Below, piece after piece: positions 35,892 to 52,375 of a stretch of 64,000 bases of DNA; position 1 is the stretch's first letter, and the number at the start of each line of letters is the position of its first letter. The DNA lies in the NCBI RefSeq assembly GCF_044324785.1, contig NZ_CP172127.1; one strand, written 5' to 3'. The stretch is from Escherichia coli. GTDB taxonomy: Bacteria; Pseudomonadota; Gammaproteobacteria; Enterobacterales; Enterobacteriaceae. The position numbers and the translations under genes were made by a program. The notes under the pieces are model-generated. The model did no database searches, was not told the origin of the DNA, and saw only the letters and a program-made list of their open reading frames with translations.

Positions 35892-36229
35892 CATGACTCC
35901 TTGCTCATCGCATGAAGACTCCGAGAGTGAACCCCGTTAGAAAGGGTCACACGCATGCCCCAATACAAAATTATTTGCTCGCCTCTATCGTTGCCATTTC
36001 ATCAAAAGAGGAAAAGACAATGATAAAAAAGTTACAAATATGTTAATGAATAAACCAAATTGATCCCGTAATTATATTACGCCGCAAAATCCTTACAATA
36101 AACAGGTTTTTATTGAGCAAATTTGCATTTTTCGACAGTGATCAATTTATAGCGAAATTGTCACGACATCACCAATTTGATCTACGACAATTTATCGTGT
36201 TTTGCAGATTTTTTTCAAGAATTAAAAAT

Positions 36230-36243
36230 TGATTTATATCAAA
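36230..36243. promoter_or_regulatory. FNR-type site (TTGAT-N4-ATCAA) in the cydAB upstream region
   Basis: Perfect ttgatttatatcaa palindrome about 340 bp upstream of cydA in a long AT-rich leader; cydAB is FNR/ArcA-regulated. Confidence 0.4.
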
Positions 36244-36696
36244 ATCAGCCAAATATGTTAATTATGTATAAACCATAGATCATTGGTAATTTTATTGTTA
36301 ATTTATTGTGAAATATTTATGCAACACAATTATTACAATGAAAAAGTATAGATAAAAAACCAGTGTTTTATTTAACAGAACCGCCCTATCCACTTTTTAT
36401 AATACCAATTGATTAGAGTAGCCAATTTGTTGCTATTTTACATAACATATTTTTATCAAAGTTAATTGATTGTTGCCTTTATGAGCACCGACCGTAAGCC
36501 CGTTATGTTATTGTTTCATTAGTAATAATCACTTAAATGTATCGATAAAACAGGTATGACTTAGCGGGAGTGATTGTTTCTGAGTGAACAGAGGACACTT
36601 TCGCCTGATAAATGAAAAATGAGCGATTTTTGCAAGTTAGTTTTTCTATAGCCGAGTACGCTCAGCGCCTCGCTTGATTACAATGAGGTTGCTGCT

Positions 36697-37641
36697 ATGA
36701 GTCCTGATAATATCGGTTCGGCTGTCAATCGCTTCTTAGGTTGGCCATCTAATGATCCTCTAAAAACAGATAACGAATCAATGACATCACCCGTGACTGT
36801 GCAGGTAATAAAGATGATTGCCGCCATCCTTGACCCACATCGGATAGTCGTTGGAATCGATACACTTTATACAACGCAGCGCGAAACATTTACCTCAGAG
36901 AGTCAACAGCTCATTGAATCAGCATTGCAAACACTTCATGTGATGAATTTAAATAACCTGGAAACAAATCTCGATGAGGAAGGTCACTATCTGGCTTTTG
37001 GATATAACGTTGACACTCCTGACAGAATAACCGTTTCTGCTTATAATGAAAAAAAGCCTGGCTGCTATGGTCAATGTCTTTTAATACAGGATGACGAAAC
37101 AGACTTATTTAACCTGATAAAAGTTAAAATTTTTGAAACCAGGCATAATTATGTCGCTCAATTGATGAGCGATCCGGAATTTATGTTCAAATTTAGTTAT
37201 AGCGCTCAACAAAATAGATTAGAACCTCATCTTCTGGTTCCCACTTATTTCCCTCTAAAAACAAACGAACCGGTTACGCAAGAGGATGTACTGTTACTTT
37301 ATCGTTTCTTTAAAATGGATGGTGATTTTAATATATTAACATCAGATGAATACATGAGTATCATGACACCTCTGATGAAGTGTGAGCGCAGCATCCACGA
37401 CCACAACAGGTATGTGACGGGCAAAGATACCCTTCTTCTGGACTATCCTCCTTCTGGTAACCAGATATATTTCCATATTTTTCCTGACGAATCAGCAACA
37501 CTAGTCCTTTATTTTTCAAACAATGACATTGAATGTTTCGTCTTTGAAAGAGATATTCCGAGCCAGTATCGCTTTTTCAAAATGTTTACCAATCTGGCAC
37601 TGGTTATTGATCAGTTAACCGATGCCAATCAAATACTTTAA
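36697..37641 (+). CDS. Hypothetical protein (314 aa), no recognisable family, low G+C
   Basis: Long ORF with GAGG RBS 8 nt upstream of ATG; AT-rich codon usage unlike flanking core genes; N-terminus rich in Ser/Thr/Asn/Pro; absent from this position in K-12 as recalled. Confidence 0.5.
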   Translation: MSPDNIGSAVNRFLGWPSNDPLKTDNESMTSPVTVQVIKMIAAILDPHRIVVGIDTLYTTQRETFTSESQQLIESALQTLHVMNLNNLETNLDEEGHYLAFGYNVDTPDRITVSAYNEKKPGCYGQCLLIQDDETDLFNLIKVKIFETRHNYVAQLMSDPEFMFKFSYSAQQNRLEPHLLVPTYFPLKTNEPVTQEDVLLLYRFFKMDGDFNILTSDEYMSIMTPLMKCERSIHDHNRYVTGKDTLLLDYPPSGNQIYFHIFPDESATLVLYFSNNDIECFVFERDIPSQYRFFKMFTNLALVIDQLTDANQIL

Positions 37642-37721
37642 TTTTTATATATTCCCTGTGGCAAATATTGCTAAACAATGCCCGGGGATTAATTTTTATT
37701 ACTCACGGAAAGATTTAAATA

Positions 37722-38144
37722 ATGATCCCATCTCAAATCTCTTTCAACACCCTTCCTGTCAATGCAACATACGCTTCAGAGACAACAGTTGACACACAAA
37801 AATTCTCTGACATCCTCTACTCAGCGGGGTGTTCCCTAAAGGATCTGGCTTATCTGAGCAGATGTCTGGCATCAATACATCCGACTATCGCCAAAAACAT
37901 TTATGAAACAGAAAATCTCAGCGATCAAAAATTACTGCATATTGATTGCCGTAGTACAAATGAAATCAAGATAAATATCTTTTTTGGTCAACAACGAGAA
38001 GGATTAATTGAAATTAATTCTGACACTGTCATTTTTCCGATATTGTCTTCATTAATTGACTCCGCCATTTCTAAATTTCAACACCAAATCCCCGTTAACG
38101 GTTCAGTAAATCCTGACCTATTGTATGAGGATTATACTGATTAA
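37722..38144 (+). CDS. Hypothetical protein (140 aa), acidic, low G+C
   Basis: ORF 80 bp downstream of and co-oriented with the 314 aa ORF; similar AT-rich composition; acidic C-terminus (LLYEDYTD). Confidence 0.4.
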   Translation: MIPSQISFNTLPVNATYASETTVDTQKFSDILYSAGCSLKDLAYLSRCLASIHPTIAKNIYETENLSDQKLLHIDCRSTNEIKINIFFGQQREGLIEINSDTVIFPILSSLIDSAISKFQHQIPVNGSVNPDLLYEDYTD

Positions 38145-38691
38145 ATCCCTCCTGTCGCGAAAAATGGCCTGCGTTATTGCCAGACGTAATAAAACTTTTG
38201 ATTAACGTTACTCGTACTGGTAGCACCTTCATGTACTTTTCTTTTTTACGAAAAATCAAAAGAGCTAACAAAGGTCATAATTCGCATGAATCATTAATTA
38301 TTTGTTATTTTCAACATTATTTTTACATTAAGCAGAGATGAATTGCAGTGAAATTCGACTTAACTTTTATGAAATGCATTTACTCATGGCTAAAGCCACG
38401 TCACAAAAATGCAAATTAGAAGTTGATCACAATTATCTCAATACATCAAATCAAGTTAATTTTAAAAATTTAACATTCATGACATTAGTTGACATAACAC
38501 ACTGAATTAAAATGATAATTTGAAAACACACTTTAAACAATCATTTCCCGAAAGACATTTTGAAAATAGATCAATTGCAACATTACGGTCAGATAAAGAC
38601 ACTCCTGTGATATTAAACCTGTGCCGTTATGAGCGGCCATAAATACGACGTGTGTAACTTATTTTACTCTCTGTCTTACAAAGGATTACCC

Positions 38692-39141
38692 ATGAAGAAA
38701 GCAACACTTGTGATTGGCGTTATTGGCGCGGACTGCCATGCAGTAGGCAATAAAGTTCTGGACCGAGTTTTTAGCAACCATGACTTCAGAGTTATTAATC
38801 TGGGCGTAATGGTCAGCCAGGACGAATATATTGATGCTGCCATTGAAACTGGTGCTGACGCGATTGTCGTCTCCTCTATCTATGGGCATGGCGATATCGA
38901 TTGTCTGGGCATGCGCGAACGCTGCATCGAGCGTGGGCTGGGTAACATCCTGCTCTATGTGGGCGGTAACCTGGTGGTCGGAAAACATGACTTCGCTGAC
39001 GTGGAAACCAAGTTCAAAGAGATGGGATTTGATCGCGTCTTTTCCCCAAGTCATGACTTAGAAGATGTTTGTCAGCTGATGGCCCACGATATCAACCAAC
39101 GTCATGACGTTGATACTCGCATTCTTGAAGAGGCAATCTGA
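38692..39141 (+). CDS. glmS: Glutamate mutase sigma (B12-binding) subunit
   Basis: [18 protein letters not shown] cobalamin-binding motif (DxHxxG); start placed at MKKATLV with AAGGA RBS; stop overlaps the next start. Confidence 0.85.
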
Positions 39142-40529
39142 TGCAAATCGTCTCTGTCGATATTGGATCGACGTGGACCAAAGCAGCCCTCTTCACCCGG
39201 GAGGGGGACGCGTTAACGTTGGTTAACCACGTTCTGACCCCAACCACCACCCATCATCTGGCGAAGGGGTTTTTCTCCAGCCTGGACCAGGTGTTAAACG
39301 TAGATAATGCCCTCCCCCTGTTAAACAGTGGTGAGGTTGCATTGAAGTATTCCTCCTCTGCCAAAGGTGGGCTGGCGGTTGCCGCAATGGGATTGGTGCC
39401 TTCTATCACCCTGGAAACCGCGAAAGTAACCGCTCACTCTGCGGGGGCTAAAATTGCGCAATATTACGCCTACAAGCTGAACCGCCGTGATATCCAGGCA
39501 CTGGAAGAAACGCAGCCCGATATTCTCTTGTTCACCGGCGGCACCGACGGCGGAGAAGAAAGCTACGGCCTGAATAACGCCCGTGTGCTGGCAGAATCCA
39601 AACTCGACTGCGCCATTATTTATGCCGGAAACCGGGATATTCAGGACGAGGTGCAGGAGATCCTAGGGCATAAAGACCTGACCATCGTCGACAATGTTCT
39701 GCCCGATCTTGACCATCCGAACCCTTTAGCTGCACGCCAGGCTATCTGCGACATATTCCTTAAACGCATCGTTAAAGGGAAAGGGCTGGATGTCGTTGTT
39801 GATAAAACAGGCGAAGAACCAATGCCGACACCGTGGACAGTCTTTGAACTGGTTAAGGCAATCAGTAATGTCGATCACAGCTGGAAAGAGTTCATGCTGA
39901 TCGACATGGGTGGCGCAACCACCGATGTCTATTCCGCCTGTGCCAACACGCTCTCGCCCGACACCGTTTTACACGGCGTACCGGAACCCTTCGTGAAACG
40001 GACGGTGGAAGGCGATCTGGGAATGCGCGTCTCGGCAATGGTGGTTGGTGAAAGTGCGAAAGAGTTAGTCAATGTGAATTTTGCTCAGCAACCCGCACAG
40101 CTGGACGCTTTTTATCATTACCTCCGTCATCTAGTCGCTCATCCCGACTACTTACCCGCGAATGCAGAAGAAAAATATTTCGATACCGTCCTGGCCGGAC
40201 TGTGTGTGGGTTATGCCACCGAAAGACATGCGGGCACCAAAAAAGAGGTCTGCACCTGCGTCGGCAATGTCGATTTACAGATGGGACGTGACCTGACAAC
40301 CGTGCGTAAAGTCGTCGGATCCGGCGGATGGCTCTCGCGTGCCAGTCAGTTCGATATGCATCACTGGTTGAAATACCGCGAGTTAAACGACGACGGTAAA
40401 CGCATTCTCTTACCGACCGAATTTGAATATTACCGCGATTCCCGGGGGCTATTACCACTGCTGGCAAACGTCGCCAGAGTCGATCCACTGGCCGCCGCGC
40501 GCACCAGTATTCAATGCTTAACCCTATAA
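39141..40529 (+). CDS. glmL: Glutamate mutase accessory/reactivating protein (MutL/GlmL-like)
   Basis: 462 aa starting [18 protein letters not shown] (ASKHA/actin-like ATPase fold); sits between the S and E subunit genes as in clostridial glutamate mutase operons. Confidence 0.75.
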   Translation: MQIVSVDIGSTWTKAALFTREGDALTLVNHVLTPTTTHHLAKGFFSSLDQVLNVDNALPLLNSGEVALKYSSSAKGGLAVAAMGLVPSITLETAKVTAHSAGAKIAQYYAYKLNRRDIQALEETQPDILLFTGGTDGGEESYGLNNARVLAESKLDCAIIYAGNRDIQDEVQEILGHKDLTIVDNVLPDLDHPNPLAARQAICDIFLKRIVKGKGLDVVVDKTGEEPMPTPWTVFELVKAISNVDHSWKEFMLIDMGGATTDVYSACANTLSPDTVLHGVPEPFVKRTVEGDLGMRVSAMVVGESAKELVNVNFAQQPAQLDAFYHYLRHLVAHPDYLPANAEEKYFDTVLAGLCVGYATERHAGTKKEVCTCVGNVDLQMGRDLTTVRKVVGSGGWLSRASQFDMHHWLKYRELNDDGKRILLPTEFEYYRDSRGLLPLLANVARVDPLAAARTSIQCLTL

Positions 40530-40547
40530 CAATTAAGGCTGCAATCA

Positions 40548-41993
40548 ATGGAACTTCGAAATAAGAAATTAACCCATGACGAATTCATGACCGAGCGGCA
40601 ACAGGTACTGAAAACCTGGGAAACCGGCAAGGATGTTGAAAACTTTGAAGATGGCGTTAAATACCAACAAACCATTCCTGAGCATAAACGCTTCTCTCTT
40701 GCGCTGTTGAAAGCAGACAAGGAAGGTAAAACCCTTAGCCAACCGCGCGCAGGTGTGGCGCTGATGGACGAACACATCGAACTACTGAAAACACTACAAG
40801 AAGAGTGCGATCTGCTGCCGAGCACCATCGATGCATATACCCGTCTGAATCGGTACGAAGAAGCGGCTGTAGGGATTAAAAAATCCATCGAAGCCGGAAC
40901 CTCTAAACTGAACGGTTTACCGGTAGTTAACCACGGCGTCGCAGCTTGCCGTCGCCTCACCGAAACTTTGCAAAAACCGCTACAGATCCGCCACGGCACG
41001 CCAGATGCGCGTCTGCTGGCTGAAATCTCGATGGCCAGCGGCTTTACCAGTTATGAAGGCGGCGGCATTTCCTACAATATTCCGTATGCCAAGCGCGTAA
41101 CGCTGGAAAAATCGATCCGCGACTGGCAGTACTGCGACCGTTTAATGGGGATGTATGAAGAACACGGGATCCGCATCAACCGCGAACCGTTTGGCCCACT
41201 AACGGGTACGCTGATCCCGCCGTTTATCTCGCACTCTATCGCGATAATCGAAGGATTACTGGCGCTGGAACAGGGTGTGAAATCTATCACCGTTGGTTAT
41301 GGACAGGTCGGCAGCCTGACGCAGGATGTTGCGGCGATCCAGTCTCTGCGTGAACTTGCACATGAATACTTTCAGAGCTATGGCTATACCGACTATGAAT
41401 TAAGTACCGTGTTTCACCAGTGGATGGGCGGCTTTCCGGAAGACGAATCGAAAGCGTTCGCTATTATCTCCTGGGGCGCAGCCGTCGCGGGGATGTCTGG
41501 TGCCACCAAAGTCATCACCAAAAGTCCGCACGAAGCCTGGGGTATCCCGACTGCCGCTGCCAACATTCAGGGGCTGAAAGCCTCCCGCCAGATGCTCAAC
41601 ATGGTCAATGAGCAGAAATTCCCGCCGTGCCCTGCGGTTGAACTGGAAATTGAACTGATTAAGAGCGAGGTTCGCGCGGTACTGAATAAAGTGTTCGAAC
41701 TGGGTAATGGTGATATTGCGCGCGGTACGGTGCTGGCATTTGAAGCGGGCGTACTGGATGTGCCGTTTGCGCCAGCCGCCTGCAACGCGGGCAAAATTCT
41801 TCCGGTCCGTGACAACACCGGCGCAATACGCGTACTGGAAGCCGGAGCCGTTCCATTGCCAAAAGATATTCTCGACCTCCACCACGATTACGTTGCGGAA
41901 CGCGCACGCTTTGAAGGACGCCAACCGACATTCCAGATGGTTGTAGATGACATCAATGCTGTATCCCACAGTAAATTAATAGGAAGACCATAA
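40548..41993 (+). CDS. glmE: Glutamate mutase epsilon (catalytic) subunit
   Basis: 481 aa with extensive similarity to remembered clostridial GlmE/MutE (e.g. QPRAGVALMDEHIELL, NREPFGPLTGTL, FQMVVDDI). Confidence 0.85.
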   Translation: MELRNKKLTHDEFMTERQQVLKTWETGKDVENFEDGVKYQQTIPEHKRFSLALLKADKEGKTLSQPRAGVALMDEHIELLKTLQEECDLLPSTIDAYTRLNRYEEAAVGIKKSIEAGTSKLNGLPVVNHGVAACRRLTETLQKPLQIRHGTPDARLLAEISMASGFTSYEGGGISYNIPYAKRVTLEKSIRDWQYCDRLMGMYEEHGIRINREPFGPLTGTLIPPFISHSIAIIEGLLALEQGVKSITVGYGQVGSLTQDVAAIQSLRELAHEYFQSYGYTDYELSTVFHQWMGGFPEDESKAFAIISWGAAVAGMSGATKVITKSPHEAWGIPTAAANIQGLKASRQMLNMVNEQKFPPCPAVELEIELIKSEVRAVLNKVFELGNGDIARGTVLAFEAGVLDVPFAPAACNAGKILPVRDNTGAIRVLEAGAVPLPKDILDLHHDYVAERARFEGRQPTFQMVVDDINAVSHSKLIGRP

Positions 41994-43234
41994 TGAAAAT
42001 AAAACAGGCTCTGTTCACCGCTGGCTACTCCTCATTCTATTTCGATGACCAGCAGGCGATAAAAAACGGAGCGGGTCATGACGGCTTTTTTTATACCGGG
42101 GAGCCAGTAACACAGGGGTTTAACGCCGTACGTCAGGCCGGGGAGTGCGTATCGGTACAGTTGATTCTGGAAAACGGCGCGGTCGCTGTAGGTGACTGTG
42201 CTGCCGTACAGTATTCCGGGGCAGGTGGTCGCGATCCACTGTTCCTCGCAGAGCACTTTATTCCGTTCCTCAACGACCATATTAAGCCATTACTGGTAGG
42301 CCGCGATGTAGATGCTTTCCTGCCGAATGCCCGTTTCTTCGACAAATTGCGTATTGACGGCAACTTGCTACATACCGCCGTACGCTACGGATTATCACAG
42401 GCGCTGCTTGATGCTACCGCGCTGGCAACCGGCCGTCTGAAAACTGAAGTGGTCTGTGATGAATGGCAGTTGCCACGCGTGGCGGAATCCATTCCATTAT
42501 TTGGTCAGAGCGGGGACGATCGATATATCGCCGTCGATAAGATGATCCTTAAGGGCATCGACGTGCTGCCCCATGCACTGATTAATAACGTCGAAGAGAA
42601 ACTGGGCTTTAAAGGTGAAAAACTGCGCGAATATGTCCGCTGGCTGTCGGATCGTATTCTGAGCAAGCGCACCAGCGCACGCTACCACCCTACCCTGCAC
42701 ATCGATGTATACGGCACTATCGGTCTGATCTTCGATATGGATCCGCTTCGCTGTGCGCAATACATCGCCAGCCTGGAAAAAGAAGCGCAAGGCCTGCCGC
42801 TCTACATTGAAGGGCCGGTCGATGCCGGTAACAAGACCGATCAAATTCGCCTGCTGACCGCGATTACCAAAGAGCTGACGCGCCTCGGTTCCGGCGTGAA
42901 AATTGTGGCCGATGAATGGTGTAACACCTACCAGGATATTGTTGATTTCACTGATGCCGCCAGTTGCCACATGGTGCAAATCAAAACCCCGGATCTGGGC
43001 AGTATTCACAACATCGTCGATGCAGTTCTTTATTGCAACAGCCACAGCATGGAAGCGTACCAGGGCGGCACCTGCAATGAAACTGATGTCAGTGCCCGCA
43101 CCTGTGTCCACGTCGCCCTTGCCGCTCGCCCCATGCGTATGCTGGTAAAGCCAGGGATGGGCTTTGACGAAGGCCTCGATATCGTCTTCAACGAAATGAA
43201 TCGTACTATCGCGCTGTTGCAGGCTAAGGATTAA
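41993..43234 (+). CDS. mal: 3-methylaspartate ammonia-lyase (beta-methylaspartase)
   Basis: 413 aa enolase-superfamily protein matching remembered clostridial MAL (GDCAAVQYSGAGGRDPLF, HMVQIKTPDLG); start overlaps glmE stop. Confidence 0.85.
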   Translation: MKIKQALFTAGYSSFYFDDQQAIKNGAGHDGFFYTGEPVTQGFNAVRQAGECVSVQLILENGAVAVGDCAAVQYSGAGGRDPLFLAEHFIPFLNDHIKPLLVGRDVDAFLPNARFFDKLRIDGNLLHTAVRYGLSQALLDATALATGRLKTEVVCDEWQLPRVAESIPLFGQSGDDRYIAVDKMILKGIDVLPHALINNVEEKLGFKGEKLREYVRWLSDRILSKRTSARYHPTLHIDVYGTIGLIFDMDPLRCAQYIASLEKEAQGLPLYIEGPVDAGNKTDQIRLLTAITKELTRLGSGVKIVADEWCNTYQDIVDFTDAASCHMVQIKTPDLGSIHNIVDAVLYCNSHSMEAYQGGTCNETDVSARTCVHVALAARPMRMLVKPGMGFDEGLDIVFNEMNRTIALLQAKD

Positions 43235-43237
43235 CAA

Positions 43238-44608
43238 ATGGCTCGTTCTTTTAAAGTCTTATCGCCAACGGCAATCCTCGGGTATGGATTCCCGGAAGAG
43301 AGCTTCCGCAAAGCGATGGCAGAATCGCCCGATCTGATCGCCGTTGATGCAGGCTCTTCCGATCCAGGCCCCCACTACCTCGGGGCGGGCAAACCGTTTA
43401 CCGATCGCGCAGGGGTCAAGCGCGATCTGCGCTATATGATCACCGCAGGCGTTCAAAATAATATACCGGTGGTGATCGGAACGGCCGGCGGTTCTGGTGC
43501 CGCTCCACACCTGGAGTGGTGCCGAGAAATAATTCATGAGATTGCCCGGGAAGAGCACCTCTCGTTCTCGATGGCGCTGATCCCAGCAGACGTTGACAAA
43601 GCCATCGTCCACCAGGCGCTGGATAACGGCAAAATCACGGCGCTGGATTTTGTCCCGCCGTTAACCCACGACGCGATTGACGAAAGTACGTATATCGTCG
43701 CGCAAATGGGCATCGAACCCTTCCAGCGGGCGCTGAAAGAAGGCGCGCAAGTGGTGCTGGGCGGGCGCGCTTACGACCCGGCCTGCTTTGCTGCGCTACC
43801 GATCATGCAAGGCTTTGATGAAGGTCTGGCGCTGCATTGCGGGAAAATCCTTGAATGCGCGGCAATCGCCGCAACGCCCGGCTCAGGCTCTGACTGTGCG
43901 ATGGGCATCATTGATGACAACGGCTTTACGCTGAAGACATTTAATCCGAAGCGTAAATTTACCGAAACGTCAGCAGCTGCACACACACTGTATGAGAAAT
44001 CCGATCCCTACTTCCTGCCAGGACCTGGCGGCGTGTTGAACCTGAAAGGCTGCACATTTAAAGCGGTCAATGACGGCGAAGTGTACGTCAGCGGTTCTAA
44101 GCATGAAGAAACGCCGTATGCCCTGAAACTGGAAGGTGCGCGACGGGTGGGCTTCCGCTGTCTGACCATCGCCGGAACGCGCGACCCGATCATGATCGCC
44201 GGGATCGATAAAATCATCGATGAAGTCAAAACCAGCGTTTCGCGTAACCTGTCGCTCGACGATGACAGCATTCGCATCAATTTCCACCTGTACGGCAAAA
44301 ACGGGGTGATGGGCGACCATGAACCGATGCAAACTGCCGGGCATGAGCTGGGGATTGTCCTAGATGTAGTTGCACCGACCCAGGAAATTGCCAACAGCGT
44401 TTGCTCGCTGGTGCGCTCTACTATGCTGCACTACGGCTATGAAAACCGCATCGCTACCGCAGGCAACCTGGCGTTCCCGTTCTCCCCTTCTGATATCCAG
44501 GGCGGGCCAGTATACGAATTTTCCATATATCACCTGATTGAAGCCAACGACGCTCTGCGTTTTGATTTCCATATTGAACAGGTGACGCCAGAAGGAGTTC
44601 AGGCATGA
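43238..44608 (+). CDS. DUF1446-like (AtuA-like) protein of unknown function
   Basis: 456 aa ORF beginning 4 nt after the mal stop; family assignment from memory of the N-terminal region, not verified. Confidence 0.55.
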   Translation: MARSFKVLSPTAILGYGFPEESFRKAMAESPDLIAVDAGSSDPGPHYLGAGKPFTDRAGVKRDLRYMITAGVQNNIPVVIGTAGGSGAAPHLEWCREIIHEIAREEHLSFSMALIPADVDKAIVHQALDNGKITALDFVPPLTHDAIDESTYIVAQMGIEPFQRALKEGAQVVLGGRAYDPACFAALPIMQGFDEGLALHCGKILECAAIAATPGSGSDCAMGIIDDNGFTLKTFNPKRKFTETSAAAHTLYEKSDPYFLPGPGGVLNLKGCTFKAVNDGEVYVSGSKHEETPYALKLEGARRVGFRCLTIAGTRDPIMIAGIDKIIDEVKTSVSRNLSLDDDSIRINFHLYGKNGVMGDHEPMQTAGHELGIVLDVVAPTQEIANSVCSLVRSTMLHYGYENRIATAGNLAFPFSPSDIQGGPVYEFSIYHLIEANDALRFDFHIEQVTPEGVQA

Positions 44609-44922
44609 AACAGTCAATTGTCTCACTGGCGCAAGTCATTCGTTCGAAAAATGCCGGACCTTACGAACTGGTTTTAGATATTTTATTTAAAACCAAAGAA
44701 AACTATGAGCGAGTTAAATCATCAGGGCAATTAACCCCAGAACTGATTGCGCGCTTATATCATGTTGAACCTGACTTTATTCACCGTATTGTCTGGTTTG
44801 ATCCTTCTAACGCAGTAAAAATCGTCATGCCACGAGATATTATCTCCGGGAATGTAGGTGACAATGATGTCTATGGTGCACAGCAACATGCACCTTTATT
44901 AAATATGAGTTTCGATTTGTAA
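44605..44922 (+). CDS. Small protein (105 aa), DUF4387-like
   Basis: Start overlaps the stop of the preceding ORF (ATGA); DUF1446/DUF4387 pairing recalled from other genomes. Confidence 0.5.
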   Translation: MKQSIVSLAQVIRSKNAGPYELVLDILFKTKENYERVKSSGQLTPELIARLYHVEPDFIHRIVWFDPSNAVKIVMPRDIISGNVGDNDVYGAQQHAPLLNMSFDL

Positions 44923-45003
44923 AAATCCGAACATTTTTAGCCAACTGACATCCCGTCACTTATTGCAGTTCAACACTTCAGCTATTTGTAAGGTTGTAAT
45001 AGC

Positions 45004-45055
45004 AGGTAGATGCCTGAATCTCTATTCGGGCATCTACTTCTCCTGATTCTGATTT
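45004..45055 (+). terminator. Candidate hairpin/partial terminator between the enzyme block and the transporter gene
   Basis: 10 bp stem GTAGATGCC..GGCATCTAC followed by a T-rich tract (ttctcctgattctgattt). Confidence 0.3.
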
Positions 45056-45082
45056 ATCGCCGTGCACCTGATGGAGGAAAAA

Positions 45083-46363
45083 ATGAAGAAAATAAGTTTA
45101 ACCACGATGATTCTTTTGGCGCTGGTACTTGGAATGATTATCGGCGTAGTGCTCAATAACACTGCTTCACCGGAAACCGCAAAACTCTATGCGCAAGAAA
45201 TATCGATATTCACGACGATTTTCTTACGACTGATAAAAATGATTATCGCTCCGTTAGTGGTCTCTACCCTGGTGGTAGGTATAGCTAAAATGGGCGATGC
45301 CAAAGCCCTTGGTCGTATTTTTTCTAAAACACTCTTTTTATTTATTTGCGCCTCATTGCTGTCAATTGCCTTAGGCTTGATAACAGTAAATTTCTTCATG
45401 CCAGGCACAGGAATTAATTTTGTTGCACACGGAGCCGAAACCACCGGAGTGGTCGCGTCAGAACCCTTTACGCTAAAAGTATTTATTTCGCATGCTTTCC
45501 CCACCAGCATTGTCGATGCCATGGCGCACAATGAAATTTTGCAAATCGTGGTGTTCTCAATTTTCCTCGGCTGTAGCCTGACGGCGATTGGCGAGAAAGG
45601 CAGCGCCATCGTTCACGCCTTAGATTCGCTGGCACATGCCATGTTAAAGCTCACTGGCTACGTCATGCTCTTCGCTCCCCTGACCGTATTCGCTGCTATT
45701 TCAGCATTGATTGCTGAACGAGGACTGGCAGTTATGGTGAGCGCCGGGATCTTTATGGGTGAATTTTATTTCACCATGTTATTACTTTGGGTGCTGCTTA
45801 TCGGTCTGGCCATCGTTTATGTCGGCCCCTGCATCAGACGCCTGACCCGCGCCCTTTCGGAACCCGCCCTGCTGGCATTTACCACATCCAGTTCTGAAGC
45901 GGCTTTTCCGGGAACGCTTGAAAAACTGGAGCAATTTGGCGTTTCCCCCAAAATTGCCAGCTTTGTCTTACCCATTGGCTACTCATTTAATCTCGTTGGA
46001 TCAATGGCCTACTGCTCCTTCGCCACAGTTTTCATCGCCCAGGCCTGCAATATCCATTTATCCATCGGTGAGCAAATCACCATGCTGTTGATCCTGATGT
46101 TGACCTCGAAAGGAATGGCTGGCGTACCACGCGCCTCAATGGTGGTTATCGCCGCCACGCTCAACCAGTTCAATATTCCGGAAGCGGGGCTGATCTTGCT
46201 GATGGGCGTTGATCCGTTCCTTGATATGGGGCGTTCCGCGACAAACGTCATGAGCAACGCAATGGGCGCTGCGATGGTGAGTCGGTGGGAAGGCGAACAT
46301 TTCGGCGAGGGCTGTCGGGGTAAAGCATTAAAACCCAATGAATCGAACGTTGCTCTGCCCTGA
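45083..46363 (+). CDS. Dicarboxylate/amino acid:cation symporter (GltP/DctA family), probable glutamate uptake
   Basis: Hydrophobic ORF, start placed at MKKISL with GGAGG RBS; GltP-like N-terminus. Confidence 0.8.
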   Translation: MKKISLTTMILLALVLGMIIGVVLNNTASPETAKLYAQEISIFTTIFLRLIKMIIAPLVVSTLVVGIAKMGDAKALGRIFSKTLFLFICASLLSIALGLITVNFFMPGTGINFVAHGAETTGVVASEPFTLKVFISHAFPTSIVDAMAHNEILQIVVFSIFLGCSLTAIGEKGSAIVHALDSLAHAMLKLTGYVMLFAPLTVFAAISALIAERGLAVMVSAGIFMGEFYFTMLLLWVLLIGLAIVYVGPCIRRLTRALSEPALLAFTTSSSEAAFPGTLEKLEQFGVSPKIASFVLPIGYSFNLVGSMAYCSFATVFIAQACNIHLSIGEQITMLLILMLTSKGMAGVPRASMVVIAATLNQFNIPEAGLILLMGVDPFLDMGRSATNVMSNAMGAAMVSRWEGEHFGEGCRGKALKPNESNVALP

Positions 46364-46470
46364 GGGGGATCTTAAGCAATCAGAAGCCAATGACTACGCA
46401 TTTTTATAAGCCGGATCATGAAGTTAGACGGCAATTAAGTAACACTAACGTTTAAGGTGAAAAGTGAAAT

Positions 46471-48123
46471 ATGTCCAAACCATTTATCTGGCAAGAACCG
46501 TTTCTACAAAATAAAGACGGTACAGAATATACATTAATTAGCGATCAACATATTACAGTAACGGAATTAGACGGCGAAGAAGTGATAAAAATCGCTCCTG
46601 AAGCATTAACGCTGCTTGCCCGGCAGGCATTTTATGAAGCCTCTTTTTTCTTACGTTCCGCTCATTTGCAACAGGTCGCCAGCATTCTTAACGATCCGCA
46701 GGCCAGTAGTAATGATAAATACGTTGCGTTGCAGTTATTACGTAATGCTGAAGTCTCAGCAAAAGGGGTATTACCCAACTGTCAGGATACCGGCACCGCA
46801 ACTATTGTTGCCAGTAAAGGGCAACAGATATGGACCGGAGGTAACGACGCCGAAGCCTTAAGCAAAGGCATTTACACCACTTTTCAGGAAAATAATCTGC
46901 GCTTTTCACAAAATGCGCCACTGGATATGTATACCGAAGTCAATACGCAAACCAATCTACCGGCGCAGATTGATATCAGCGCCGTCGCTGGTGATGAGTA
47001 CCATTTTCTCTGTATTAATAAAGGGGGCGGCTCTGCCAATAAAGCCGCGCTTTATCAGGAAACAAAATCCCTATTGCAACCAGAAAAACTGACCGCATTT
47101 TTAATCGAAAAAATGAAATCGCTGGGCACCGCTGCCTGCCCGCCTTACCACATCGCCTTTGTCGTCGGAGGGCTTTCAGCCGATCAAACCTTAAAAGTTG
47201 CCAAGCTGGCCTCAACGAAATATTACGACAATTTGCCCACCAGCGGAAACGCGCAGGGACAAGCATTCCGTGATATTGAGTTGGAAAAAGCGTTGCTCAA
47301 CGCCAGTCAGCAATTTGGTATTGGTGCGCAATTTGGGGGTAAATATTTCGCTCATGATATTCGCGTCATTCGTCTGCCGCGTCACGGTGGCTCTTGCCCG
47401 ATAGCTATGGCGCTCTCCTGTTCTGCCGATCGCAATATCAAAGCAAAAATTAACAAGCACGGTATCTGGCTGGAAAAACTCGTACACAATCCGGGGCAAT
47501 ATATTCCAGCCTCACTGCGGGAAGAAAATCACCCGCAACATGTACAGCTGGATCTAAACCGTCCGTTGCGTGACGTGATGCAGGATCTCGCCAGATTACC
47601 GGTAGGCACCCGCGTGTCGTTAAATGGTCCCATCGTAGTGGCGCGCGATATCGCCCACGCCAAAATAAAAGCGCGGCTGGATAGCGGCGAACCGATGCCG
47701 GATTACCTGAAGCATCATATTGTCTATTACGCTGGCCCGGCGAAAACACCTGAGAACATGGCCTGCGGTTCACTGGGTCCAACCACGGGTGGACGAATGG
47801 ACGGTTATGTCGATACCTTCCAGGCGGTTGGCGGCAGTCTGGTGATGTTATCGAAAGGTAACCGCAGCCAGCAGGTCACCGATGCCTGTCACAAACATGG
47901 CGGCTTCAATCTGGGAAGTATTGGCGGTGCAGCAGCGTTACTGGCGCAAGAATATGTCAAAAGTCTGCGTTGCCTGGAATACCCGGAGCTGGGTATGGAA
48001 GCGGTGTGGATGATGGAAGTGGAAAATCTGCCCGCATTCATCCTGGTAGATGATAAAGGCAATAATTTCTTTAGTCAGTTTGAGCAGCAACACCGCTGCG
48101 CCAGTTGCCCTGCGGGACATTAA
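46471..48123 (+). CDS. Class I fumarate hydratase paralog (candidate mesaconase)
   Basis: 550 aa nearly collinear with remembered E. coli FumA ([37 protein letters not shown]); located in the methylaspartate cluster. Confidence 0.85.
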
Positions 48124-48132
48124 GGAAAATGA

Positions 48133-48735
48133 ATGGAAGCGCGAATTTCAACTGAACGGCATGTGCAGCGCCAGCAGAAATTGAAGGAACAGGTCGATAC
48201 GCGCGTCGCGGCGGCGATAGAGAAAAAAGGGATCTTGATTGTTTTCACCGGCAACGGCAAAGGGAAATCCACTGCCGCGTTTGGTACTGTGACGCGCGCG
48301 GTGGGTCATGGCAAAACGGTGGGGGTTGCGCAGTACATCAAGGGGCAATGGGACAACGGCGAATACAACCTTCTCCAGCCGCTGGGGGTTGAGTTTCATA
48401 TTATGGGAACCGGTTTTACCTGGGAGACACAGAACCGGCAAGCGGATATCGACGCGGCGAAAGAGGTCTGGTCGGAAAGCAAACGGATGCTGGCTGACAA
48501 GCGTTACGACTTAGTGGTGCTTGATGAGCTGACCTATATGCTGGCTTACCATTATCTGGACACCGAAGAAGTGATCGCTTCTCTGCAAAACCGCCCGGCA
48601 CAACAAAGTGTCATTGTCACCGGACGCGGTTGCCACAGTCAGATATTAAAAATGGCGGATACGGTCAGCGAAATCCGCCCCGTCAAACATGCTTTTGATA
48701 ACGGCATTCAGGCGCAGCCGGGTATCGACTGGTAA
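48133..48735 (+). CDS. ATP:cob(I)alamin adenosyltransferase (BtuR/CobA family)
   Basis: 200 aa with IVFTGNGKGKSTAAFG P-loop; collinear with remembered BtuR. Confidence 0.85.
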   Translation: MEARISTERHVQRQQKLKEQVDTRVAAAIEKKGILIVFTGNGKGKSTAAFGTVTRAVGHGKTVGVAQYIKGQWDNGEYNLLQPLGVEFHIMGTGFTWETQNRQADIDAAKEVWSESKRMLADKRYDLVVLDELTYMLAYHYLDTEEVIASLQNRPAQQSVIVTGRGCHSQILKMADTVSEIRPVKHAFDNGIQAQPGIDW

Positions 48736-48768
48736 TAACTGCGCCTGGCATCCCGCCAGGCGCAGGTT

Positions 48769-49674
48769 TTACATCTCCTGCGGTACGACCGATTTCGCCA
48801 GCAACCATTCACGAAATTGCTGCAAGTGCGGCGAGTCAGACTTCTCTTCCTGCCACGTCATAATAAAACGATTACCGGTACGAATAGGCACATCACAGGG
48901 AATCACCATATCGCCACTATCCAAATCATGTTGAATAGCGAACCGTGGTAACAGCGCCACGCCGAGATTAGAGCGCACGGCGGCAATCAGCATTGAAAGC
49001 AAATCGAAACGTGGTCCGTTGTTGACCAGCGGACTGCTAACGCCAGATAAGGCAAACCACTCTTCCCAGCCAGTAATACGGGTACTTTGATGCAGAAGTG
49101 GTAACTCTGTAAGCAGTTCTGCCACTGACAGTTTTTGATCGGACATTGCAAGCAAACTGCCGCTGCATACCGGCAAAATCTCTTCTTCAAAGAGATATTC
49201 TACTTCCGCCCAGGGCGCGCAAAAATTTTCGCGCATAATGACAGCATCGTACTCCCGATTAAGAAAATCGCCGTTATTAGCTAAAGAGTGAATATTAACA
49301 ATAATATCGGGATGTAACTTTGTGAATTCATGTAAATTTGGGATTAACCAGTGGGTACTAAACGTAGGATTCACGGCAAGTTCAATAACCTGAACCGTAG
49401 GCTGCCAGGTCATAATGGTATTGGTATCGCGTTCCAGCTTATTTAATGTTTCTTTTACTATCCCCAGGTAATACTTCCCTGCATCATTAAGAAAAATACG
49501 TTTTTTAGAGTGTGAAAATAACGGAGTATGTAAAAATTCCTCCAGCGCACTCACTTGTCTGAATACTGCACTTTGGGTTAACGCTAACTCCTCTGCCGCT
49601 CTGGTATAACTTTCATGACGTGCGACGACCTCAAAAGTCACCAGCAGTTCCGTTTTAGGTATTTTCCCTCGCAT
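48769..49674 (-). CDS. LysR-family transcriptional regulator
   Basis: 301 aa with N-terminal LysR HTH (YTRAAEELALTQSAVFRQVSALE); convergent with the pathway operon. Confidence 0.8.
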   Translation of the reverse strand: MRGKIPKTELLVTFEVVARHESYTRAAEELALTQSAVFRQVSALEEFLHTPLFSHSKKRIFLNDAGKYYLGIVKETLNKLERDTNTIMTWQPTVQVIELAVNPTFSTHWLIPNLHEFTKLHPDIIVNIHSLANNGDFLNREYDAVIMRENFCAPWAEVEYLFEEEILPVCSGSLLAMSDQKLSVAELLTELPLLHQSTRITGWEEWFALSGVSSPLVNNGPRFDLLSMLIAAVRSNLGVALLPRFAIQHDLDSGDMVIPCDVPIRTGNRFIMTWQEEKSDSPHLQQFREWLLAKSVVPQEM

Positions 49675-49705
49675 AATGCCGTCCCTTAAAAATAGTTTAA
49701 ACCAT

Positions 49706-49723
49706 CAAAAATACATTACTTAT
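49706..49723. promoter_or_regulatory. Inverted repeat TTACTT-N6-AAGTAA upstream of the LysR gene
   Basis: Perfect 6 bp arms about 32 bp upstream of the LysR start; fits a T-N11-A LysR-type box. Confidence 0.3.
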
Positions 49724-50239
49724 TACGAAGTAATGGTAACCAAAGCAGCAATAAATAATTTATAAGAATCATGATTGACATTTATAACCCAGTAAGCCTG
49801 GCGTGACAAATATCTTAATCAGATAATAATAATCCGAAAAGCACAGCGCCTTTCGAATTATCCGGAATCACATTAAGTGAAAATTATTAAATTGATATCA
49901 TTTATCATATCTGTGGATATTATGATAAACAATCAACAAAGATTTTATTTTTGATTTATAGCATATCCCTCTAAGAATTTTTGCGATGCTGCAATATCCG
50001 GGGTAAAGACCCGATCCTGGCTGACAAATGGCACGACTTGACGATAAGCGGTGAACATCGCTTTTGTTGATTTACTTAACGCTACGGTCAAACGCTGGGA
50101 AGCCAGTGCATCAGGTAACGATTCGAAATTCGCCGTCGTTCTTATTCGTGGCTTGCGGTCGGTTGCGGCAATCCACAGTGGCTGTGGTCATGCAGTCAAG
50201 CCAGCGGTCAGATTTCGACCGTGGTTAACGTTTAAGGCA

Positions 50240-50339
50240 TAAAAAAGGCCATCATACGATGGCCAACCATGTCGAAACCGACAGCCCTTCGCCATTCCTG
50301 TAGAGGGAAGCGGCGAGGGCTATTTCTTATTACAGATAT
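50240..50339 (-). ncRNA. sdhX: sucD 3'UTR-derived sRNA (SdhX/RybD-like) with intrinsic terminator
   Basis: About 100 nt directly downstream of the sucD stop ending in hairpin ggccatcgtatgatggcc plus U-run on the minus transcript; identity by position and memory only. Confidence 0.45.
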
Positions 50340-51209
50340 TTATTTCAGAACAGTTTTCAGTGCTTCACCGATATCCGCCAGGCTGCGAACGGTTTTCACG
50401 CCTGCGGCTTCCAGAGCAGCGAATTTCTCATCCGCAGTCCCTTTACCACCGGCAATGATGGCACCTGCGTGACCCATACGTTTGCCTTTCGGCGCAGTCA
50501 CACCAGCGATGTAACCCACAACTGGCTTGGTAACGTGCTCTTTGATGTACGCAGCCGCTTCTTCTTCAGCGCTACCGCCGATCTCACCGATCATCACGAT
50601 CGCTTCGGTCTGCGGATCTTTTTCGAACATTTCGAGGATGTCGATAAAGTTAGAGCCAGGGATCGGGTCGCCGCCGATACCAACACAGGTCGACTGACCG
50701 AAACCGTAATCCGTGGTCTGTTTAACCGCTTCATAGGTCAGTGTACCGGAACGGGAAACGATACCCACTTTACCCGGTTTGTGAATGTGACCAGGCTGGA
50801 TACCGATTTTGCATTCACCCGGAGTGATAACGCCTGGGCAGTTCGGGCCGATCATGCGAACGCCCGCTTCATCCAGTTTCACCTTCACGGTCAGCATATC
50901 CAGCGTCGGGATGCCTTCAGTGATGGTGATAATCAGTTTGATGCCTGCATCGATAGCTTCCAGAATGGAGTCTTTGCAGAACGGTGCTGGTACGTAGATA
51001 ACAGAAGCGGTAGCGCCAGTAGCAGCAACAGCTTCACGCACGGTGTTGAACACCGGCAGGCCGAGGTGGGTAGTACCGCCTTTACCTGGGGTTACGCCGC
51101 CAACCATTTTGGTGCCGTATGCAATGGCCTGTTCAGAGTGGAAAGTCCCCTGGCTACCGGTAAAGCCCTGGCAGATAACCTTGGTGTTTTTATCAATTAA
51201 AATGGACAT
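50340..51209 (-). CDS. sucD: Succinyl-CoA synthetase alpha subunit
   Basis: 289 aa starting [18 protein letters not shown]; synteny. Confidence 0.95.
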
Positions 51210-52375
51210 TATTTCCCCTCCACTGCGGCAACAACCTGCTGAGCTGCATCCGTCAGACCTTTTGCTGCAATAATATTCAGGCCGCTGTCAGCCAGTTTCT
51301 TCGCGCCGAGTTCGGCGTTGTTACCTTCCAGACGTACCACGACCGGTACGTTAACACCCACTTCCGCTACCGCGCCGATGATACCGTCAGCGATCAGGTC
51401 GCAACGAACGATACCGCCGAAAATGTTAACCAGAACGGCTTTCACTTTGTCGTCAGAGAGGATGATTTTGAACGCTTCGGTTACACGTTCTTTGGTTGCG
51501 CCGCCGCCAACGTCCAGGAAGTTAGCTGGTTCGCCGCCGTGCAGTTTAACGATGTCCATGGTGCCCATCGCCAGACCTGCGCCGTTAACCATACAACCGA
51601 TGTTACCGTCCAGCGCAACGTAGTTCAGTTCCCACTGTGCAGCCTGTGCTTCACGCGGATCTTCCTGCGACTGGTCACGCATTTCGCGCAGATCAGGCTG
51701 GCGGAACAGTGCGTTGCCGTCAGCGCCCAGTTTGCCGTCGAGGCAAATCAGATCGCCCTGTTTGGTGATGACCAGCGGGTTGATTTCGATCAGCGCCAGG
51801 TCGCGCTCCAGGAAAATGGTCGCCAGGCCCATGAAGATTTTGGTGAACTGCTGAACCAGTTTACCTTCCAGACCCAGTTTGAACGCCAGCTCGCGTCCCT
51901 GATATGGCATCGGGCCAGTCAGCGGATCAAGCGCAACTTTGTGGATCAGGTGCGGAGTTTCTTCCGCCACTTTTTCGATTTCCACGCCGCCTTCGGTGGA
52001 GGCCATAAAGACCACACGACGGGAACTACGGTCTACAACGGCACCGAGATACAGCTCTTTAGCGATATCGGTCGCTGCTTCAACCAGAATCTGGTTAACC
52101 GGTTGGCCATTGGCATCTGTTTGATACGTTACCAGACGCTTGCCCAGCCAGTTTTCTGCAAAAGCACGGATGTCTTCTTTGCTGTTTACAACTTTCACAC
52201 CGCCCGCTTTACCGCGGCCACCAGCGTGAACCTGACATTTCACTACCCACGGACCGGCACCGATTTTTGAAGCGGCTTCTTCTGCTTCGCGCGGAGTAGT
52301 ACAGGCATAACCCACCGGTGCTGGTAAGCCATAGCGGGCAAAAAGTTGTTTTGCCTGATATTCATGTAAGTTCAT
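51209..52375 (-). CDS. sucC: Succinyl-CoA synthetase beta subunit
   Basis: 388 aa starting [18 protein letters not shown]; stop overlaps sucD start. Confidence 0.95.

Follow-up and report, generated by a model that had tools for sequence, protein, structure and literature searches.

The LysR-type regulator encoded at the distal end of the glutamate/methylaspartate (mesaconate) pathway island of Escherichia coli most likely acts at the promoter of glmS, the first gene of the glutamate mutase operon, and would thus be uncoupled from its operator. This reading is suggested by a near-invariant 21-mer in the glmS leader, copies of which are found at other pathway modules and beside regulator homologues. 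An inverted repeat upstream of the LysR gene, which a preliminary description had proposed as the autoregulatory box, is most likely a lineage-specific feature of a remodelled AT-rich spacer and not the regulator's own box. The model as a whole, in which cobO would serve glutamate mutase and the regulator gene would have moved away while its operator was left at the glmS promoter, is given a probability of about 0.6.

The segment at 48133-49723 constitutes the distal end of this island in the window, that is, the whole 64-kb stretch of DNA that was analysed. Relative to K-12, the island is limited by cydA on one side and by sdhX-sucD on the other, and K-12 carries mngR-mngAB at that place. The cluster is present in ~18% of complete E. 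coli genomes, O157:H7 included, and the island of O157:H7 Sakai shares 98.2% identity with that of the window, the locus being ECs_0755 (LTTR), ECs_0756 (CobA), ECs_0757 (FumD) and so on up to ECs_0764 (GlmS). It is the same locus as the O157:H7 glutamate fermentation cluster of Kronen and Berg (2015, PLoS One, PMC4682846), whose Figure 5 already draws the cobO and LysR genes, and the gene content of the segment is known and was published in 2015. In that study, FumD was the sole characterised product and no condition giving cluster expression in O157:H7 was found; the operator, the promoter and the regulator were not analysed, and neither the palindrome nor the conserved glmS-leader element was mentioned (PMC4682846). 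Searching the literature by locus tag (Sakai, EDL933) and for work on how the pathway is regulated returned this study only.

Genes at the distal end of the island

The gene preceding cobO is fumD (46471-48123, plus strand), encoding a class I fumarate hydratase/mesaconase that scored 1273.9 bits against NF011921 (cut-off 1060) and corresponds to ECs_0757 of O157:H7 Sakai, the product characterised as FumD (PMC4682846). Starting 9 nt past its end, cobO (48133-48735, plus strand) is the last gene of the plus-strand unit and encodes a 200-aa ATP:cob(I)alamin adenosyltransferase. The proposal that the island encodes a CobA/BtuR-type adenosyltransferase of its own, immediately behind the fumarase gene, is upheld by family profiles and by alignment with BtuR, and had been published already. 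The product exceeded the cut-offs of two cob(I)yrinic acid a,c-diamide adenosyltransferase models (NF004637, 295.6 bits, cut-off 185; TIGR00708, 246.6 bits, cut-off 167.75) and that of the Pfam family CobA_CobO_BtuR (PF02572, 216.2 bits, cut-off 25.7). It is 67% identical to K-12 BtuR over 196 aa without gaps, with the P-loop GNGKGKST aligned to GNGKGKTT of BtuR, and its closest solved relative is Salmonella CobA (1g5r, E 2.5e-88). The pdu and eut operons of Salmonella, both devoted to B12-dependent catabolism, likewise possess their own adenosyltransferases, PduO and EutT, beside the housekeeping CobA/BtuR. The island resembles them in being a B12-dependent catabolic operon with an additional adenosyltransferase of its own; however, its enzyme is of the CobA/BtuR type (PF02572, 67% identity to BtuR) and belongs neither to the PduO nor to the EutT type.

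The 33-nt gap between cobO and the LysR gene is filled by a G+C-rich hairpin located between the two stop codons (48739-48765; 11 pairs, 9 of them G-C, with a loop of 5). It is followed by GTTTTAC on the plus strand, and thus combines the G+C-rich stem-loop and the T-run of Rho-independent terminators. This hairpin is a probable bidirectional intrinsic terminator, although we infer termination in both directions, since the T-run is short and only TTATTA follows on the minus strand. In some strains (e.g., PCN033), IS200C is inserted between cobO and the LysR gene.

The LysR gene itself (48769-49674, minus strand) encodes a 301-aa regulator of the GcvA clade, with an HTH_1 domain at residues 9-67 (PF00126, 64.7 bits, cut-off 26.6) and a LysR_substrate domain at residues 96-293 (PF03466, 98.7 bits, cut-off 28), and is intact, at the same 301 aa, in O157:H7 Sakai as ECs_0755. 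Its top NCBIfam model is GcvA (NF008352), yet the score of 221.5 bits is below the curated cut-off of 288, so that the protein is regarded as a clade relative and not as GcvA. The closest solved relative is also GcvA (8y6u, E 7e-43), and the AmpR effector domain was matched at E 5e-13. Thus, the regulator shares its two-domain architecture with the GcvA/AmpR clade, where its nearest sequence relatives are found, and differs from it in its linkage to glutamate mutase, mesaconase and B12 genes and in its sub-cut-off score. The recognition helix LTQSAVFRQV is identical among the orthologues of Escherichia, Citrobacter, Klebsiella, Salmonella, Enterobacter and Buttiauxella. Use of this helix to discriminate glm-linked from non-glm regulators was dropped, the differences being too subtle (FRQ or CRQ versus CKQ), and the more distant homologue P0114 (41% identity), found in a GcdR-like context, falls outside the orthologous group.

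The LysR gene is convergent with cobO, and a divergent gene, as in the typical LTTR layout, is absent in the window. It had been described as the only regulator of the island, convergent with the operon, which holds in E. coli, where profile searches of the island found no other regulator, but not beyond it, since the islands of Salmonella, Citrobacter and Klebsiella add a PocR-like gene of the AraC family adjoining the LysR gene (230 bits against NF047788 in S. arizonae, below the cut-off of 500). While these islands thereby recall PocR, the AraC-family regulator of cob and pdu in Salmonella, the E. coli island carries a lyase pseudogene remnant at that position, and a tblastn search for a PocR-like remnant in E. 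coli found no trace.

The inverted repeat upstream of the LysR gene

The inverted repeat CATTACTT-N6-AAGTAATG lies at 49714-49735, with perfect 8-bp arms (49714-49721 and 49728-49735) that enclose the core TTACTT-N6-AAGTAA (49716-49733). The preliminary description, whose segment ended at 49723, inside the repeat, was right about the perfect core, the arms being even longer than it had stated, but not about its distance of about 32 bp from the start: the ATG (49674) and the start of the nearer arm are 40 nt apart, with 39 nt between, and the repeat spans 40-61 nt upstream. The palindrome is only marginally non-random. When repeats with arms of at least 8 bp and a spacer of 0-12 were counted in dinucleotide shuffles, 0.08 were expected per 200 nt and 6.1% of the shuffles contained at least one, and for the whole 562-nt spacer 0.19 were expected versus 2 observed, a count reached by 4.1% of the shuffles. 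Additionally, seven inverted-repeat pairs occur in the AT-rich spacer (~650 nt) that holds the palindrome. With up to 2 mismatches, copies were found neither in the island nor in the glmS leader, and 3 were found in the window versus 2.06 expected.

The DNA surrounding the repeat appears to have been remodelled. The spacer is AT-rich and Escherichia-specific, the region upstream of the LysR gene having been replaced in this genus, and TTAAACTATTTTT is the sole stretch upstream of the gene common to Escherichia, Citrobacter, Salmonella and Klebsiella. Within this stretch lies TAAACT (49694-49699, minus strand), which may be the –10 hexamer of the LysR gene, and the palindrome would overlap the corresponding –35 position. 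Further upstream, a 48-aa ORF (49945-50091, minus strand) is what remains of the C-terminal end of an aromatic amino acid (histidine) ammonia-lyase-like gene, extending to 78 aa in E. whittamii, where it aligns with the final 44 positions of the Pfam model Lyase_aromatic (24.5 bits, slightly under the cut-off of 27.3). Downstream of this remnant, a hairpin (49831-49859, minus strand; AATCCGAAA...TTTCGAATT in the window), whose 10-bp stem is perfectly paired in both E. whittamii and Escherichia sp. E1V33, is probably a relic terminator bounding the LysR promoter region. The palindrome is intact in O157:H7 Sakai, retains its arms in E. whittamii with two changes in the N6 spacer, and is degenerate in one Escherichia species, E1V33, where it carries two uncompensated arm changes, a divergence equal to that of the surrounding spacer. 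It is absent upstream of the orthologue in Citrobacter, Klebsiella, Salmonella, Enterobacter and Buttiauxella.

These observations bear on three readings of the repeat. That it has no function, being a chance repeat in an AT-rich, recently remodelled spacer with a gene remnant and a relic terminator, is considered slightly better than an even bet: its expected frequency (0.08-0.19 per region, with 4-6% of the shuffles matching the observed count), the seven pairs in the same 650 nt, the Escherichia-specific spacer with its lyase remnant, and a conservation no greater than that of the neighbouring DNA all point this way, against which stand the perfect match of the 8+8 arms, their location precisely on a plausible –35 and their integrity in Sakai and E. 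whittamii. The same position over the inferred –35, together with the replacement of the upstream region in Escherichia, where new control could therefore have arisen, would fit an operator at which some other factor, encoded on the chromosome, controls the LysR gene in this genus only; since none of the motifs tested matched, no second copy exists in the 64 kb and the statistics are weak, this is thought improbable. The third reading, in which the repeat would be the regulator's own autoregulatory operator, is the one originally put forward and is now judged very unlikely. LysR-type regulators are commonly autoregulated, the perfect arms lie 40-61 nt upstream of the ATG and cover the –35 of the inferred promoter, the E. 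whittamii arms persist despite two spacer changes, and the GTAAT in each arm is loosely like CTAAT, the motif reported for GcvA sites. However, an operator of this regulator would not be expected to be missing at the orthologous promoters of five genera that share the recognition helix LTQSAVFRQV, to diverge at the level of the spacer in E1V33, or to lack any relative at the pathway promoters. Moreover, the palindrome is unlike the element that accompanies the regulator clade; being an even-length dyad, it offers no symmetric fit to the odd-length T-N11-A motif, and about 6% of the shuffles reach it.

A conserved element in the glmS leader

The gene glmS (38692-39141, plus strand; start as annotated in E. 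coli 042) was matched above the cut-offs of TIGR01501 and NF002612. A search of its leader for matching T-N11-A boxes, which the preliminary description had suggested, showed no relative of the palindrome, but a different and very strongly conserved element of the T-N11-A type at 38558-38578 (plus strand). This 21-mer, TTTTGAAAATAGATCAATTGC, contains the dyad TTG-N9-CAA (38560-38574) and is a candidate operator of the LysR regulator. It was found with 0-1 mismatch in 36/36 loci covering the region upstream of glmS, which represent about ten genera, with a pairwise identity of 98.5% versus 53-54% in the flanks, and it is the only strong weight-matrix match in the 64-kb window. A loose search for TTG-N9-CAATTGC with 2 mismatches was uninformative (72 matches versus 98 expected), the exact glmS site alone standing out.

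Diverged but recognisable forms of the element lie upstream of glmS in Yersinia, Hafnia, Enterobacteriaceae bacterium B14, Yokenella, Paludibacterium, Azoarcus and Telmatospirillum, and diverged copies precede every separately transcribed pathway module. A second copy is located in the divergent spacer between the regulator gene and btuC in Yokenella and Enterobacter sp. ENT03 (26-27/32 bases, background ≤21), and further copies are found upstream of fumD in four Yersinia loci, B14 and the metagenome locus L088, the Yersinia fumD site TTGCAGAGAGAACAATTGC having 15/19 bases in common with the E. coli glmS site. In Azoarcus, Paludibacterium, Pseudogulbenkiania and Leeia, the element is located 24-90 nt upstream of the regulator start, pointing away from it, and in the beta-proteobacteria Pseudogulbenkiania and Leeia it stands beside a regulator homologue with no glm genes nearby.

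From conservation, we infer a glmS promoter at 38575-38603 (plus strand), with –35 TTGCAA (38575-38580), a 17-nt spacer and –10 GACACT (38598-38603). In every enterobacterial leader, a hexamer of the form (G/C)A(C/A)A(C/T)T is separated from the box by a constant distance, and the fumD sites of Yersinia and B14 have the same TTGC followed by AATAAT or TATATT 16-17 nt on. Consensus promoter scans of three regions returned counts at chance level in all of them. A scan of 35000-52000 on both strands with the Rfam covariance models (E ≤ 1) gave zero matches, which argues against a B12 riboswitch or any other RNA of a known family in the glmS leader or in the vicinity of the regulator gene. No family match was found for two unannotated ORFs at 36697-38144.

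Several observations speak against the operator reading. The only strong sigma-70-like promoter call in the leader (38489-38516), which is E. coli-specific, would put the element within the transcribed leader. The best-conserved dyad of the element would lie near –43, whereas classical LysR-type systems usually have their high-affinity site near –65. In the beta-proteobacteria, the dyad is degenerate (TGA-N7-TCG). The 21-mer might alternatively be bound by another regulator (FNR-like/global anaerobic or nitrogen) or represent a core promoter, the LysR protein controlling something else, e.g., only fumD-cobO. This would agree with the anaerobic nature of the pathway, with the likeness of TTGA...TCAA to FNR half-sites, with the regulator gene always adjoining fumD-cobO in enterobacteria, and with the loci of Hafnia, Telmatospirillum and Morganella, where no LysR-family ORF was found within 10 kb and yet the first two keep a good copy of the element and Morganella its right half only; therefore, its persistence could in part be due to another factor or to promoter function alone. 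However, FNR and CRP were rejected on spacing, as the fixed arrangement TTGAT-N4-ATCAA spans 14 bp and every variant has TTGA-N7-TCAA, which at 15 bp is one base longer, and AACAA replaces ATCAA at the Yersinia fumD sites. In addition, the regulator homologues of the four beta-proteobacteria, of which two lack glm genes nearby, are immediately preceded by the element, a duplicate of it occurs in the Yokenella regulator-btuC spacer, and in B14 and locus L041 the same contig does carry the regulator, more than 10 kb off. Control of the 21-mer by something other than the LysR protein is thus viewed as unlikely, and action of this regulator at the glmS promoter is the preferred reading.

Regulator position and the proposed control of the cluster

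The regulator gene is co-inherited with the cluster in at least three arrangements. It is distal and convergent in Escherichia, Citrobacter, Klebsiella, Salmonella, Enterobacter, Buttiauxella and Pseudescherichia. Yokenella and Enterobacter sp. ENT03 have it divergent from btuCDBF-glmS, whereas in Paludibacterium and Azoarcus it is directly divergent from glmS. In Yersinia, it is divergent from SUMT-GHMP kinase-glmS and also directly upstream of fumD-cobO, which it adjoins in B14 and L088 as well. This distribution shows that the convergent position is a derived rearrangement and gives no sign of the regulator controlling something else. In classical LysR pairs, the regulator gene is divergent from the operon, autoregulated and associated with a T-N11-A box. 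The relatives in Paludibacterium, Azoarcus, Yokenella and Yersinia have this layout, and the candidate TTG-N9-CAA fits T-N11-A, whereas in Escherichia, Citrobacter, Klebsiella and Salmonella the regulator gene is 11 kb from the box and convergent with the operon end, and a weight-matrix search detected no box at its own promoter in these four genera.

In the proposed explanation, cobO would be co-transcribed behind fumD and its product would make adenosylcobalamin for glutamate mutase, with the LysR-type protein as the dedicated regulator of the pathway. The regulator gene would ancestrally have lain divergently to glmS, or to B12 genes that lead into it, and would have shifted to the far end of the cluster in the lineage of Escherichia, Citrobacter, Klebsiella and Salmonella. 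The operator would have remained at 38558-38578, as the 21-bp TTG-N9-CAA element followed by TTGC, abutting and overlapping the putative glmS –35, and from this site the regulator may activate the long glmS...fumD-cobO unit in response to a pathway metabolite. The broader proposition, that a LysR regulator physically uncoupled from its operator commands, through the 21-bp box and its fumD and btuC copies elsewhere, a small B12/glutamate-mesaconate regulon, is given even odds.

Such a scheme would not reveal a new kind of system, but it would make regulation of the cluster experimentally tractable, and it moves the focus from a weak palindrome to the conserved candidate operator and promoter at 38558-38603. 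The question at stake is how a cluster that appears to be silent comes to be expressed in pathogenic E. coli, Citrobacter, Klebsiella and Salmonella. If the proposal is true, the box and the regulator would provide a direct handle on a cluster for which no inducing condition has been found since 2015.

The island and its adenosyltransferase

On the cydA side, homology between the window and K-12 ends at 36267, and on the other side it ends at 50237, where the sRNA gene sdhX, which follows sucD, comes to an end; the approximately 14 kb in between replaces K-12 mngR-mngA-mngB. The order is two ORFs without family match (36697-38144), glmS, glmL and glmE (glutamate mutase and its reactivase), methylaspartate ammonia-lyase, an AtuA-like protein, a DUF4387 protein, a GltP/DctA-type transporter, the class I fumarase gene fumD (46471-48123, + strand), cobO (48133-48735, +) and, on the opposite strand, a LysR-type regulator gene (48769-49674). 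Kronen & Berg (PLoS One 2015, PMC4682846) had already reported these genes from E. coli O157:H7 under the name 'glutamate fermentation gene cluster', and they found no condition that expresses the cluster. The Sakai island and the window share 98.2% identity, and the Sakai genes ECs_0755, ECs_0756 and ECs_0757 correspond to the regulator (intact, 301 aa), cobO and the mesaconase FumD, respectively. The stretch 48000-50400 shows 99.4–99.6% identity in E. coli strains such as 042, and at least 80% of it is contained in 975 of 5426 complete E. coli genomes. Literature searches on the regulation of the cluster found no work.

The preliminary description held that the island carries its own adenosyltransferase directly after the fumarase gene, which was borne out: the 200-aa cobO product scores above the curated cut-offs of the CobA/CobO models and Pfam PF02572, aligns without gaps to K-12 BtuR at 67% identity with the P-loop retained, and has Salmonella CobA as its nearest solved structure, while cobO starts 9 nt past fumD. 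At the gene level that observation is essentially correct, but it had been published before. A second, pathway-linked adenosyltransferase was earlier known from PduO and EutT, and the logic is the same here, although the island enzyme is instead of the CobA type. A strong hairpin (48739-48765) begins 3 nt after the end of cobO and stops 3 nt short of the stop codon of the regulator, and by this placement fits a terminator common to the two convergent units. In several E. coli strains, e.g., PCN033 (locus L090, 1144-1602), an IS200C copy has inserted into the spacer that separates cobO from the LysR gene and carries this hairpin.

Other B12 genes precede glmS elsewhere (loci L043, 1838-6418; L042, 4487-6172; L049, 1454-6044): Yokenella and Enterobacter sp. 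ENT03 have paralogues of btuC, btuD, btuB and btuF, and genes for SUMT, a GHMP kinase and CobD occur there in Yersinia and Morganella. The Yersinia insertion consists of SUMT and GHMP kinase, and that of Morganella of SUMT, CobD, a 286-aa ORF without family match and a CysG-N-like gene.

The two ORFs between cydA and glmS (36697-37641, 314 aa; 37722-38144, 140 aa; both +) are AT-rich, gave no match in Pfam or NCBIfam, and are confined to E. coli-type islands, being missing in other genera. The right edge of the island touches the 3' end of sdhX, K-12 homology stopping 2 nt beyond sdhX (50237-50340); the sdhX terminator lies at 50264-50247 (-), and an Rfam scan gave no match to sdhX. In Citrobacter, Klebsiella, Salmonella and Enterobacter, the DUF4387-gltP spacer (44923-45082 in the window; e.g., locus L014, 12931-13099) measures 165–172 nt and is strongly conserved, E. 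coli having a diverged version. Since paired segments (GTACAGGATT...CTGTAT; CAGGCGTGCGCCTGAGC...GCTCAGGCGCACGC) appear to co-vary, a structured RNA or processing site is suggested; Rfam returned nothing for this spacer.

The regulator and its gene order across genera

The regulator contains HTH_1 and LysR_substrate domains, and its closest relatives are GcvA and AmpR, with a score under the GcvA cut-off. The neighbourhoods of methylaspartate ammonia-lyase homologues, 80 loci in all, were retrieved and mapped by tblastn. As described for the window, the gene is distal, on the opposite strand and convergent with the operon in every Escherichia, Citrobacter, Klebsiella, Salmonella, Enterobacter, Buttiauxella and Pseudescherichia locus that extends far enough to include that end (72–93% identity). 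The Yersinia regulator (64%) is divergent from SUMT-GHMP kinase-glmS and immediately upstream of fumD-cobO, that of Yokenella and ENT03 (57–58%) is divergent from btuCDBF-glmS, that of Paludibacterium and Azoarcus (45%) is directly divergent from glmS, and in Enterobacteriaceae bacterium B14 and one metagenome contig it lies between a cob operon and fumD-cobO. The regulator is thus kept with the pathway in several gene orders, and the association outlasts several rearrangements; convergence, as seen in E. coli, is a derived state. Homologues at 41–45% identity occur in Leeia, Pseudogulbenkiania and a GcdR-like context with no adjoining glm genes. Because the 45%-identical Pseudogulbenkiania homologue adjoins a class II fumarase/aspartase-type lyase and a class I fumarase (locus L086, 11094-14367; no glm genes), there is a hint that this clade may sense C4/C5-dicarboxylates.

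A PocR-like AraC-family gene was observed just upstream of the LysR gene in Salmonella, Citrobacter and Klebsiella islands (L039, 18090-18992, -; L014, 19231-19935, -; many Citrobacter loci), and the E. coli, Pseudescherichia, Enterobacter and Buttiauxella islands are without it. The regulator also has recorded alleles that are shortened, at 189 aa (180 clustered sequences) or 279 aa (Shigella dysenteriae among them; proteins P0074, P0003, P0006), so in some lineages the start site may differ or the gene may be decaying into a pseudogene.

The palindrome and the conserved element

A TTACTT-N6-AAGTAA repeat upstream of the regulator had been proposed as its autoregulatory box. The repeat exists (arms 49714-49721 and 49728-49735), but its distance to the ATG is 40 nt rather than about 32 bp. 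Comparable repeats arise in shuffled sequence at 0.08 per 200 nt, with at least one in 6.1% of shuffles, and seven inverted-repeat pairs occur in the spacer concerned. This regulator-sdhX spacer (562 nt) is Escherichia-specific and about 88% identical along its whole length in three Escherichia species; the arms are unchanged in E. whittamii, and in Escherichia sp. E1V33 two positions in them differ, without compensation. The recognition helix is identical in the Citrobacter, Klebsiella, Salmonella, Enterobacter and Buttiauxella regulators, yet no palindrome-like sequence is present upstream of them, the sole stretch shared with Escherichia being TTAAACTATTTTT, a possible -10 region; several of these genera have the PocR-like gene and its terminator just upstream of the regulator. 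No related sequence was found elsewhere in the island. As a softer argument, the dyad is of even length and therefore cannot be a symmetric T-N11-A box. On these comparisons, the autoregulatory reading is unsupported and unlikely.

The same spacer holds a relic hairpin (49831-49859) and a C-terminal remnant of an aromatic amino acid (histidine) ammonia-lyase-like gene (49945-50091, -), which is longer in E. whittamii (counterpart in L064, 16217-16453); by alignment, E. coli has lost roughly 300–400 nt more than its sister species. A second perfect inverted repeat, TTTATCATA-N11-TATGATAAA (49901-49929), reaches an arm length of about 13 bp if imperfect pairing is allowed, is unaltered in E. whittamii and differs at two positions in E1V33. 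It lies within a 25-codon ORF (49877-49954, +), with a sigma-70-like promoter (49803-49830) upstream and a terminator-like hairpin (50046-50063) downstream.

When glmS leaders from 29 loci were aligned, one block stood out of the diverged AT-rich sequence, namely TTTTGAAAATAGATCAATTGC (38558-38578), which contains a TTG-N9-CAA dyad in T-N11-A arrangement followed by TTGC. It shows 0–1 mismatch in 36/36 loci that include the region, and its pairwise identity is 98.5% versus 53–54% in 60 flanking columns. A search for T-N11-A boxes had been proposed for both the glmS leader and the regulator promoter region; a weight-matrix scan of the 64-kb window gave this element as its single strong match, and none near the regulator's promoter. 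A diverged element precedes glmS in Yersinia, Hafnia, B14, Yokenella, Paludibacterium, Azoarcus and Telmatospirillum, and its right half only in Morganella. The element is a much better operator candidate than the palindrome.

The regulator-btuC spacer of Yokenella and ENT03 contains a further copy (26–27/32 bases; background ≤21). Upstream of fumD, a related site occurs where fumD-cobO stands as a unit by itself (four Yersinia loci, B14 and the metagenome contig L088), that of Yersinia, TTGCAGAGAGAACAATTGC, having 15/19 bases in common with the E. coli glmS site. The element is also found 24–90 nt upstream of the regulator start, pointing away from it, in Azoarcus, Paludibacterium, Pseudogulbenkiania and Leeia, and the latter two loci have no glm genes in the neighbourhood. 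Because of these copies, the element travels with the regulator clade and not with glmS alone. Against this link, no LysR-family ORF was found within 10 kb in the Hafnia, Telmatospirillum and Morganella loci, and the beta-proteobacterial dyads are degenerate; in B14 and locus L041, the regulator is on the same contig, farther off.

Proposed control of the glmS unit

The promoter controlled by the regulator, which the preliminary description had left undecided, is inferred to be that of glmS, acting via the candidate box at 38558-38578, which is a specific and testable answer. With the 3'-terminal TTGC of the element as its first bases, a putative -35 hexamer would read TTGCAA (38575-38580), and a conserved hexamer, GACACT (38598-38603), follows 17 nt downstream. 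The Citrobacter form of the latter is GAAACT, and that of Yersinia, Hafnia and Morganella is CACATT; at the Yersinia and B14 fumD sites, TTGC is followed by AATAAT or TATATT 16–17 nt on. With such a promoter, the dyad would be centred near -43. About two helical turns upstream of it lies a partly conserved block, (T/G)(C/A)AAGA, and together the two resemble the paired sites of LysR-type activators. A good sigma-70-like promoter sequence, specific to E. coli (38489-38516, +; TTGACA-16-AATGAT, 10/12), lies about 45 nt upstream of the 21-mer element, which would fall inside a transcribed leader if that promoter were active.

The regulator would activate a single long unit, from glmS through cobO, with glutamate, methylaspartate, mesaconate and citramalate as candidate effectors. 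Since the glsA stop overlaps the fumD start in Klebsiella, and other Citrobacter-group loci are spaced similarly, a separate promoter for fumD is probably absent from these loci. Classical autoregulation has probably been lost in enterobacteria, because their regulator promoter is without the box. Overall, this would be ordinary regulatory biology with a modest twist, the relocation of the regulator away from its operator.
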